From positions 1 through 64,000 of IMG/VR virus record IMGVR_UViG_3300046804_004438: a stretch of 64,000 nt of DNA; one strand, written 5' to 3'. The notes below the pieces were generated by a model, which ran no database searches, was not told the origin of the DNA, and saw only the letters and a program-made list of their open reading frames with translations. Made by a program: the position numbers and the translations under genes. Each line of letters starts with the position of its first letter. The first letter of the stretch is position 1. Source of the stretch: a virus. Of this stretch, positions 58,038-58,310 are shown in pieces.

Positions 58038-58070
58038 AAAAGGGGAGAGTTTATTCTCTCCCCTTTTTTT
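58038..58070. terminator. Bidirectional rho-independent terminator
   Basis: AAAAGGGGAGAG-tttatt-CTCTCCCCTTTT, a perfect 12-bp stem with T-tracts on both strands. Confidence 0.9.
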
Positions 58071-58074
58071 GTTT

Positions 58075-58257
58075 TTATGAATTAAGAGAAGGATGTAGAG
58101 GGAAGGATTGAGGATAGTAGTGAGTGTAGTAGTTTATTAGATTTTGGTAGTTAATATTATATGGAAGATTATATGTTTGAAGTTGTTGTAAGAATTGTAT
58201 TTTTTGTTGGATTGTGTTAAGGGATTGGAATGTTGAGTAGATATAATTGAGGTCCAT
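58075..58257 (-). CDS. 60-aa ORF with no guanine after the first four nucleotides
   Basis: AAGGAGA RBS, ATG, promoter P3 upstream, terminator downstream; the plus strand has no C from 58064 to 58253. Confidence 0.65.
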   Translation of the reverse strand: MDLNYIYSTFQSLNTIQQKIQFLQQLQTYNLPYNINYQNLINYYTHYYPQSFPLHPSLNS

Positions 58258-58279
58258 TTCAGTTCTCCTTTACCTTTAT

Positions 58280-58310
58280 AATATCCGATATTTTAATAAA
58301 AAAGGCAACA
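58280..58310 (-). promoter_or_regulatory. Phage early promoter P3 (drives the G-free unit)
   Basis: TG-TTGCCT-N17-GATATT; spacer nearly identical to P1, P4 and P5. Confidence 0.7.

Follow-up and report, generated by a model that had tools for sequence, protein, structure and literature searches.

What could empty a natural gene of one of the four bases, and what could keep it empty? The question is raised by a short early gene in an IMG/VR viral contig (record IMGVR_UViG_3300046804_004438; 110,386 bp, rated 68% complete, 36% GC), of which the first 64,000 nucleotides make up the stretch analysed here, called the window. The first-pass annotation, made from the letters of the window, had claimed that the plus strand is devoid of C over 190 nt, and a direct count bears this out: positions 58064..58253 (+) hold 81 T, 55 A and 54 G, form no simple repeat, and hence specify a minus-strand message without G. 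The runner-up C-free run is 59 nt long, in the window and in the whole contig alike, and when the contig was simulated 100 times with an order-2 Markov model the longest C-free run had a mean of 49 nt and a maximum of 74. The annotation was right to call the run improbable and mistaken in the figure, since it assumed 12% C (about 3e-11); the window has 18.9% C, which gives 0.811^190, or about 5e-18 per start position, so that the run is even less expected by chance than had been supposed.

The same gene stands out when whole reading frames are compared. Among the 326 ORFs of the contig that are 40 aa or longer, the one at 58257..58075 has the lowest G content (1.1%), followed by one at 8.1%. 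The family to which it belongs has a single copy in each genome, and the family member is the lowest-G gene both in the window phage (z -4.8) and in G001, a complete phage genome of 167,756 bp (z -4.5). An assembly or base-calling artefact, named in the annotation as a possible refutation, can on these comparisons be regarded as excluded, because G-poor homologues occur in independent assemblies from other samples (L006, L245 and others). Second in length among the contig's single-base-free runs is a plus-strand stretch of 94 nt that lacks G (window 62731-62824), and it is of another kind: it is the Asp/Glu-rich C-terminus of a minus-strand ORF (62771..63001) and looks like ordinary acidic low-complexity coding sequence.

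The gene was described as a self-contained early transcription unit, and its ORF, ribosome-binding site and terminator support this. It has 60 codons (58075..58257, minus strand), ATG-GAC followed by 58 G-free codons and a TAA stop. A Shine-Dalgarno sequence AAGGAGA (58264..58270, minus strand) lies 6 nt upstream of the ATG, and GGAG or GAGAG is present in the leaders of all family members. The unit is closed by a bidirectional intrinsic terminator detected by a terminator scan (58038..58067, 12-bp stem, T runs on both sides), whose hairpin is the sole stable structure in the predicted fold of the transcript. The promoter is a more delicate matter. The element TTGCCT-17-GATATT (58280..58308, minus strand) matches only 8 of 12 consensus positions and stays below the threshold of our sigma-70 scan; on the other hand, it belongs to a motif, GTTGYYTTTTTTAT.AAAATA..., that is present three times near the locus (window 57835-57864, 58280-58309 and 58374-58403), and it is kept upstream of the L006 homologue. 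We infer from this repetition that it is the putative early promoter of the G-free gene. Alignment with L006 also reveals a conserved upstream box, AACCTCTTGATTTTACACG (58321..58339, minus strand), with a mirrored copy at 58347 (+) that would serve the divergent plus-strand promoter. The long conserved module GTTGYYTTTTTTAT.AAAATA..., in many cases with the leader GCAATGGAGAG after it, is found at cassette junctions in both orientations in related phages, including L006, L023 and L032.

Directly past the terminator, a sigma-70-type promoter called by the promoter scan (TTGACT-17-TATTAT, 57996..58024, minus strand, 10 of 12 positions) starts the next cassette, which encodes, with a good ribosome-binding site, a very hydrophobic peptide of 34 aa beginning MFRLILNIWATFVFVLWATPWLMF... 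(window 57871-57975, minus strand), probably a small membrane protein. Two studies of T4-type phages describe such a layout, in which an early promoter comes straight after a terminator stem-loop, under the name PeSL (PMC2839356, PMC4122927). Here the terminator at 58038-58067 is followed by the promoter at 58024..57996, and the cassette is present or absent among close relatives: searching by synteny from the neighbouring 366-aa gene, we obtained 22 related loci, and of the 23 loci including our own, only the window and L006 carry the G-free cassette, with promoter motifs repeated at the junctions. The terminator/promoter junction layout also flanks the homologue in L028. As to the phage itself, the contig encodes a T4-type gp32 and an RNase H. 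The annotation had spoken of alphaproteobacterial phages, a label we find unsupported, as gp32 places the phage closest, among named ones, to cyanophages (about 55% identity). Beyond the window, at contig 84571-109089, the phage has 12 tRNA genes, nine of which read G-containing codons (Arg-UCU, Met, Ser-GCU, Ala, Gly twice, Val, Gln-CUG and Trp).

Is the G-free frame translated, or is the RNA itself the product? The annotation had suggested a comparison of amino-acid with nucleotide conservation, and the L006 homologue, whose ORF has only 4 G past the start codon and which shares the promoter and terminator, allows it. The two proteins are 79% identical (BLASTP E 2e-23); the genes differ at codon positions 1, 2 and 3 in the ratio 9/3/19, with 14 synonymous and 9 nonsynonymous codon differences. 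This pattern of positions, together with the synonymous excess, points to purifying selection on a protein. A wider family became accessible through L028, a more distant homologue with normal G: a word-indexed protein search with the window protein gave no match, and the family was found through synteny and then through this normal-G homologue. A profile search of 1.84 billion representatives brought together 96 representative clusters, and a profile of 70 members matches the window ORF over the whole domain (E 6e-24). The unnamed family, of about 49 aa, has the consensus M.L..IY..F..L.T..EK..FL..L..LNLPYDINY..LI.AW, and its core residues (I6, F10, L13, K19, L23, L26, L31, Y33, I35, N36, L40, I41) are all present in the window protein.

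An AlphaFold2 model of that protein, built on the 70-member alignment, has a mean pLDDT of 86.6, with residues 1-40 at 96-97, and predicts helices at 3-12, 16-28 and 37-47 ahead of a disordered tail. The tail is Pro-rich and 12 residues long, and its ending, YYT.Y.PQ.FPLHP.LN, is common to the window protein and to P0009, a less G-poor relative, which argues that it is no random read-through. The G-free ORF is thus, judging from conservation and the model, a conserved protein-coding gene for a small predicted three-helix protein. Searches for a function of the family gave no match in Pfam, PHROG or the ESM Atlas, a Foldseek search of the PDB gave no fold match at E <= 0.001, and the region, compared at the nucleotide level with 50,697 phage records, gave none either.

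These results bear directly on the idea, raised in the annotation, that the transcript acts as RNA: as the R-loop primer of an origin or a sink for gp32, to which one may add an unstructured, C-containing sink or loading site for Rho, Hfq or S1. The transcript is indeed predicted to be unstructured apart from its terminator, and the window copy, with 29% C and no G, has the composition of a Rho loading site. Nevertheless, the ORF is under purifying selection and has a confident predicted fold, most homologues have normal G, the intrinsic terminator follows directly, and the cassette, being in 2 of 23 relatives, marks no fixed origin. A mobile cassette with normal-G homologues means that the G-free property belongs to a clade of genes and not to a position in the genome. 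We therefore rejected a T4-type replication origin, which would have a non-coding transcript at a fixed position. We likewise rejected a Rho loading site or decoy: G poverty is conserved among the G-poor relatives, but C ranges from 14.6% (L006) to 29%. Nor does synonymous C enrichment serve as a Rho signature; it is found in the window gene and in L023, is absent from L006, and extends, at third positions, to neighbouring genes. As a whole, we consider an RNA product very improbable, and find the origin and gp32-sink proposals unsupported.

A further comparison is that of G content within the protein family. In the 44 members with DNA the distribution is bimodal: 36 have 16.7-27% G, and eight have 9.2% or less. 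Most homologues (36 of 44) do not share the G-poor state of the window gene. A metagenome scan added seven further G-poor members, six at 1.4-4.0% G and one at 7.3%, including marine (TARA) contigs whose flanks have 44-50% GC. The G-poor sub-clade (1-9% G) accordingly covers freshwater and marine phages of 35-50% GC. A protein tree places the G-poor members to one side of a branch, at a support of only 86/80, and shared composition could be pulling them together. Whether or not this grouping holds, more than one substitution per site has gone by without the trait being lost.

Does the depletion follow from the protein, or does it act on the nucleic acid, as the annotation had argued? We scored synonymous G-bearing codons in Leu, Ser, Thr, Pro, Gln and Lys against the codon usage of each gene's own locus. 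The 36 normal-G members have as many as expected from their own flanking genes. The G-poor members do not: the window gene has none against 6.8 expected, L027 none against 6.4, L069 none against 6.5, L044 two against 9.2, L046 three against 11.4, L248 none against 13.3, L250 none against 11.8, L252 none against 12.1 and L249 one against 18.0, the P values for L248, L249, L250 and L252 being about 1e-8 to 1e-12. For the window gene the expectation runs from 6.7 to 9.2 (P 4e-4 to 9e-6), the upper value being that from the neighbouring early genes (9.2, P 9e-6); for marine relatives, zero stands against 12-13 (P about 1e-8). The annotation's claim that the constraint does not act through the protein alone is well founded on these counts. 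The stop codon agrees in direction, being TAA in seven of eight G-poor members as against 12 of 27 normal ones.

The protein has been altered as well. Of the 20 alignment columns that hold a G-requiring residue in most normal members, 19 are filled in the window protein by one that can be encoded without G, with E replaced by Q or N, V by I, A by S or N, D by N and W by Y, while L, I, F, Y, N and K stay in place where they are conserved. The result is a protein without nearly all charged residues, and because of this loss its function may differ from that of its normal-G relatives. Synonymous depletion combined with G-free replacements around a preserved core shows that the lack of G is a derived trait of one clade, brought about by selection on the nucleotide sequence.

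It might still be argued that composition and codon bias, or a local mutational bias, produced the gene, the protein having simply moved towards Q/N/Y/L-rich residues and the gene using codons that end in A, C or T. The family core is in fact built from residues with no requirement for G, and a gene of another phage, discussed below, arrives at 9% G by codon bias alone. Yet synonymous G is as expected in the 36 normal-G members and depleted in the G-poor clade relative to its own codon usage, neighbouring genes are normal, and Val, Ala, Trp, Arg, Gly, Asp and Glu have been removed together. The commonest replacement of an acidic residue, E to Q, is a G-to-C transversion, unlike the G-to-A change of deamination, so that G-to-A hypermutation fails to explain the pattern and was rejected as its origin. 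We strongly disfavour this explanation and give it hardly any weight. The gene reaching 9% G (L174:8687-8896, that is G017:48687-48896) codes for 69 aa, has 38% C and the same type of leader, and belongs to a complete phage that has a gp42-type gene and lacks our family. Its remaining G is found almost only as the first base of Asp, Ala, Val, Glu and Gly codons, and it looks like a case of extreme codon bias rather than of residue replacement.

There is also a second family of small early genes (87-88 aa) upstream of the same 366-aa gene, in L023 (397-660), L024, L025 and L031. The L023 member has 3.8% G and two synonymous G-bearing codons against 13 expected; in L032 (864-1130) G poverty is less extreme. 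Homology between the two G-poor families was considered and rejected (hhalign probability 0.2%).

Where the depletion begins and ends is informative. It is limited to the reading frame, starting just past the start codon and ending at the stop. In the 30 nt before the start codon the mean count is 6.0 G for the G-poor group against 6.9 for the normal one, and the window leader has 8. A hazard at any RNA guanine, or at any template cytosine, should have trimmed the dispensable G of the leader as well, so that a depletion stopping at the borders of the frame leans towards a G-directed attack linked to translation. We regard this as suggestive of a translation-coupled hazard and not decisive, because the need for a Shine-Dalgarno sequence may by itself retain G in the leader.

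The explanation we prefer, and to which we would give slightly less than an even chance, is target avoidance: the translated message would escape a factor acting on guanine, perhaps a ribosome-dependent nuclease of the RelE type. Every G in a translated message would be a liability if something in these infections acted at mRNA guanines. The most fitting candidate would be an A-site endonuclease like RelE; a G-directed nuclease or modifier of single-stranded mRNA might be an alternative. A G-free frame would allow the early protein to be made while other messages are being inactivated, and the three-helix protein could itself be the antidote, although that idea is conjecture. Outside the ribosomal A site RelE is inactive, and its cuts show a strong preference for a G directly behind them, either at codon position 3 or at position 1 of the codon that follows (PMC5224514). 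Defence toxins reportedly include members of the RelE/ParE group (PMC11980606). Points against this explanation are that the specificity of RelE explains the absence of G from positions 3 and 1 better than from position 2, and that a hazard to template-strand cytosine predicts the same sequence pattern. The annotation had also mentioned ADP-ribosylation of the CmdT type, which acts at GA (PMC11618068); such an attack would still strike the leader at GGAGAA.

The two remaining proposals of the annotation, a G-directed attack or GTP limitation on one side and a C-free template on the other, may each hold and are weighed here. According to the template explanation, the phage carries hydroxymethyl-C, possibly glycosylated, and a C-free template stays readable in spite of a host enzyme that damages or marks modified cytosines, such as a glycosylase of the Brig1 type. 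Brig1 excises glucosyl-hmC, leaving abasic sites, and is proposed to impede transcription and/or replication (PMC11078745). The C-free state concerns the template strand only, the coding strand having 29% C. Moreover, among complete genomes only G001 has a G-poor member, and it encodes a dCMP hydroxymethylase of the T4 gp42 type (E 3e-84 to PDB 1B49) adjoining a dCMP deaminase-like gene (L074:616-1293 and 1244-1783; G001:96615-97782), and a gp42-type gene is absent from two near-complete genomes with normal-G members. More than 550 hydroxymethylase genes of this type were matched in IMG/VR.

In the window phage itself no PF00303 gene is present in the 110-kb contig, a fact that speaks against modified cytosine and yet says little, because the gp46/47/45/44/gp23 module, which is where gp42 lies in G001, is missing from all related contigs. 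Homologues of the G001 block gp23, UvsW, gp55, gp47, gp46, gp45, gp44 and gp62 were sought in the 110,386-bp contig and none was detectable; the gp42-bearing module of G001 (gp46/47 ... gp45/44) is missing from the window contig and from all related contigs, and searches for gp42 and gp46 in the relatives of the window phage gave none, those contigs being without that module. Since all of them break alike, we take a large core module of this lineage to be unassembled. A scan for outlier genes in eleven further genomes and fragments gave only a weak association: counting G001, six records have gp42, and a G-poor gene with a ribosome-binding site is found in two of these six, one being the codon-bias case of G017, as against none of the two genomes without gp42. 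Template C is not reduced in the leader, which also argues against this explanation. A link to the nearby glycosyltransferase (59677-60606) was considered and rejected, this being a core gene kept in genomes with and without gp42. The gp42 gene of G001 leans weakly towards a C-free template, which we nonetheless judge unlikely.

The remaining explanation concerns supply. The frame would avoid G codons so as to be expressed when GTP is scarce or replaced by chain-terminating analogues, or so as to be independent of the tRNAs that read G-containing codons, tRNAs that the phage has to supply itself. The restriction of the depletion to translated codons agrees with this, as do the promoter-proximal position of the gene, its short leader, and the fact that nine of the 12 phage tRNAs read G-containing codons; this last bias is not clearly above expectation, and is suggestive at most. 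However, the other early genes of the window phage have normal G, and with 8 G in the 30 nt of the leader transcription still needs GTP. No defence directed at G nucleotides is known to exist against phages that use the host polymerase. We find a supply-side cause quite improbable.

Coming back to target avoidance, we would tentatively extend it, with the odds somewhat against us, to a more general proposal: that the "three-letter" early genes of aquatic T4-like phages are a means of counter-defence, in which a dedicated antidote would be encoded on a message or template lacking the target of a base-specific host weapon. The family would then point to an attack so far undescribed, aimed at the guanines of translated mRNA or at modified cytosine in the template, and to its inhibitor.

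That selection keeps a natural protein-coding gene wholly free of one base, in freshwater as in marine phages, points to a strong, undescribed selective agent that acts base by base. The system lends itself to experiment: since the protein is the same whether its gene is G-free or G-recoded, a difference in expression between two such copies would identify the factor, and the normal-G and G-free members permit comparison inside a single protein family. Depletion of a single base limited to a reading frame also offers a rule for searching for similar genes, and the window gene is a ready-made natural G-less reporter.

How does this gene compare with what is already known? Full-text searches of the literature turned up no account of phage genes that are naturally free of G or of C. 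As an object, the nearest relative is the synthetic G-less cassette, which yields an RNA without G, can be transcribed in vitro without GTP and survives RNase T1. Both are transcribed stretches with a G-free RNA; the cassette is a non-coding laboratory construct, whereas the phage gene is natural, protein-coding and held G-free by selection. Rho loading (rut) sites are C-containing, G-poor, unstructured RNAs of more than about 80 nt. The window transcript resembles them in being C-containing, G-free and, by prediction, unstructured, and differs in that the stretch is protein-coding and followed by an intrinsic terminator, and in that C-richness is not conserved in the G-poor relatives.

For the possible role of the protein, the model is Dmd of T4, a small (about 60 aa) immediate-early antidote to the RNase toxins RnlA and LsoA that is needed before the toxin acts. 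The likeness is one of role, and an antidote role for the window protein is pure inference; there is no sequence or fold relationship between the two, and we know of no evidence that the Dmd message is target-free.

Messages freed of a target are known from other settings: ACA-less mRNAs resist the MazF endonuclease, and RNA viruses are depleted of CpG and UpA against ZAP and RNase L. In these cases, as in ours, a message has been freed of the target of a nuclease or sensor through synonymous choice and conservative replacements. In ours, the depleted unit is a single nucleotide and not a 2- or 3-mer, and the depletion concerns one gene of the genome and stays within the frame.

Our unit shares with the PeSL cassettes known from T4-type phages (Arbiol et al. 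2010, PMC2839356; Comeau et al. 2014, PMC4122927) a small variable early gene in a mosaic region, a border made of terminator and promoter, and presence or absence among relatives. That concept describes how such genes travel and not their base composition, and the two abstracts describe no G-free member. The nearest known idea is therefore that of the target-free message, and the nearest known object the synthetic G-less cassette. We see in the window gene a variant of target avoidance, directed against a postulated agent; should a weapon aimed at one base, and an antidote to it, come to light, this would represent a new kind of system.
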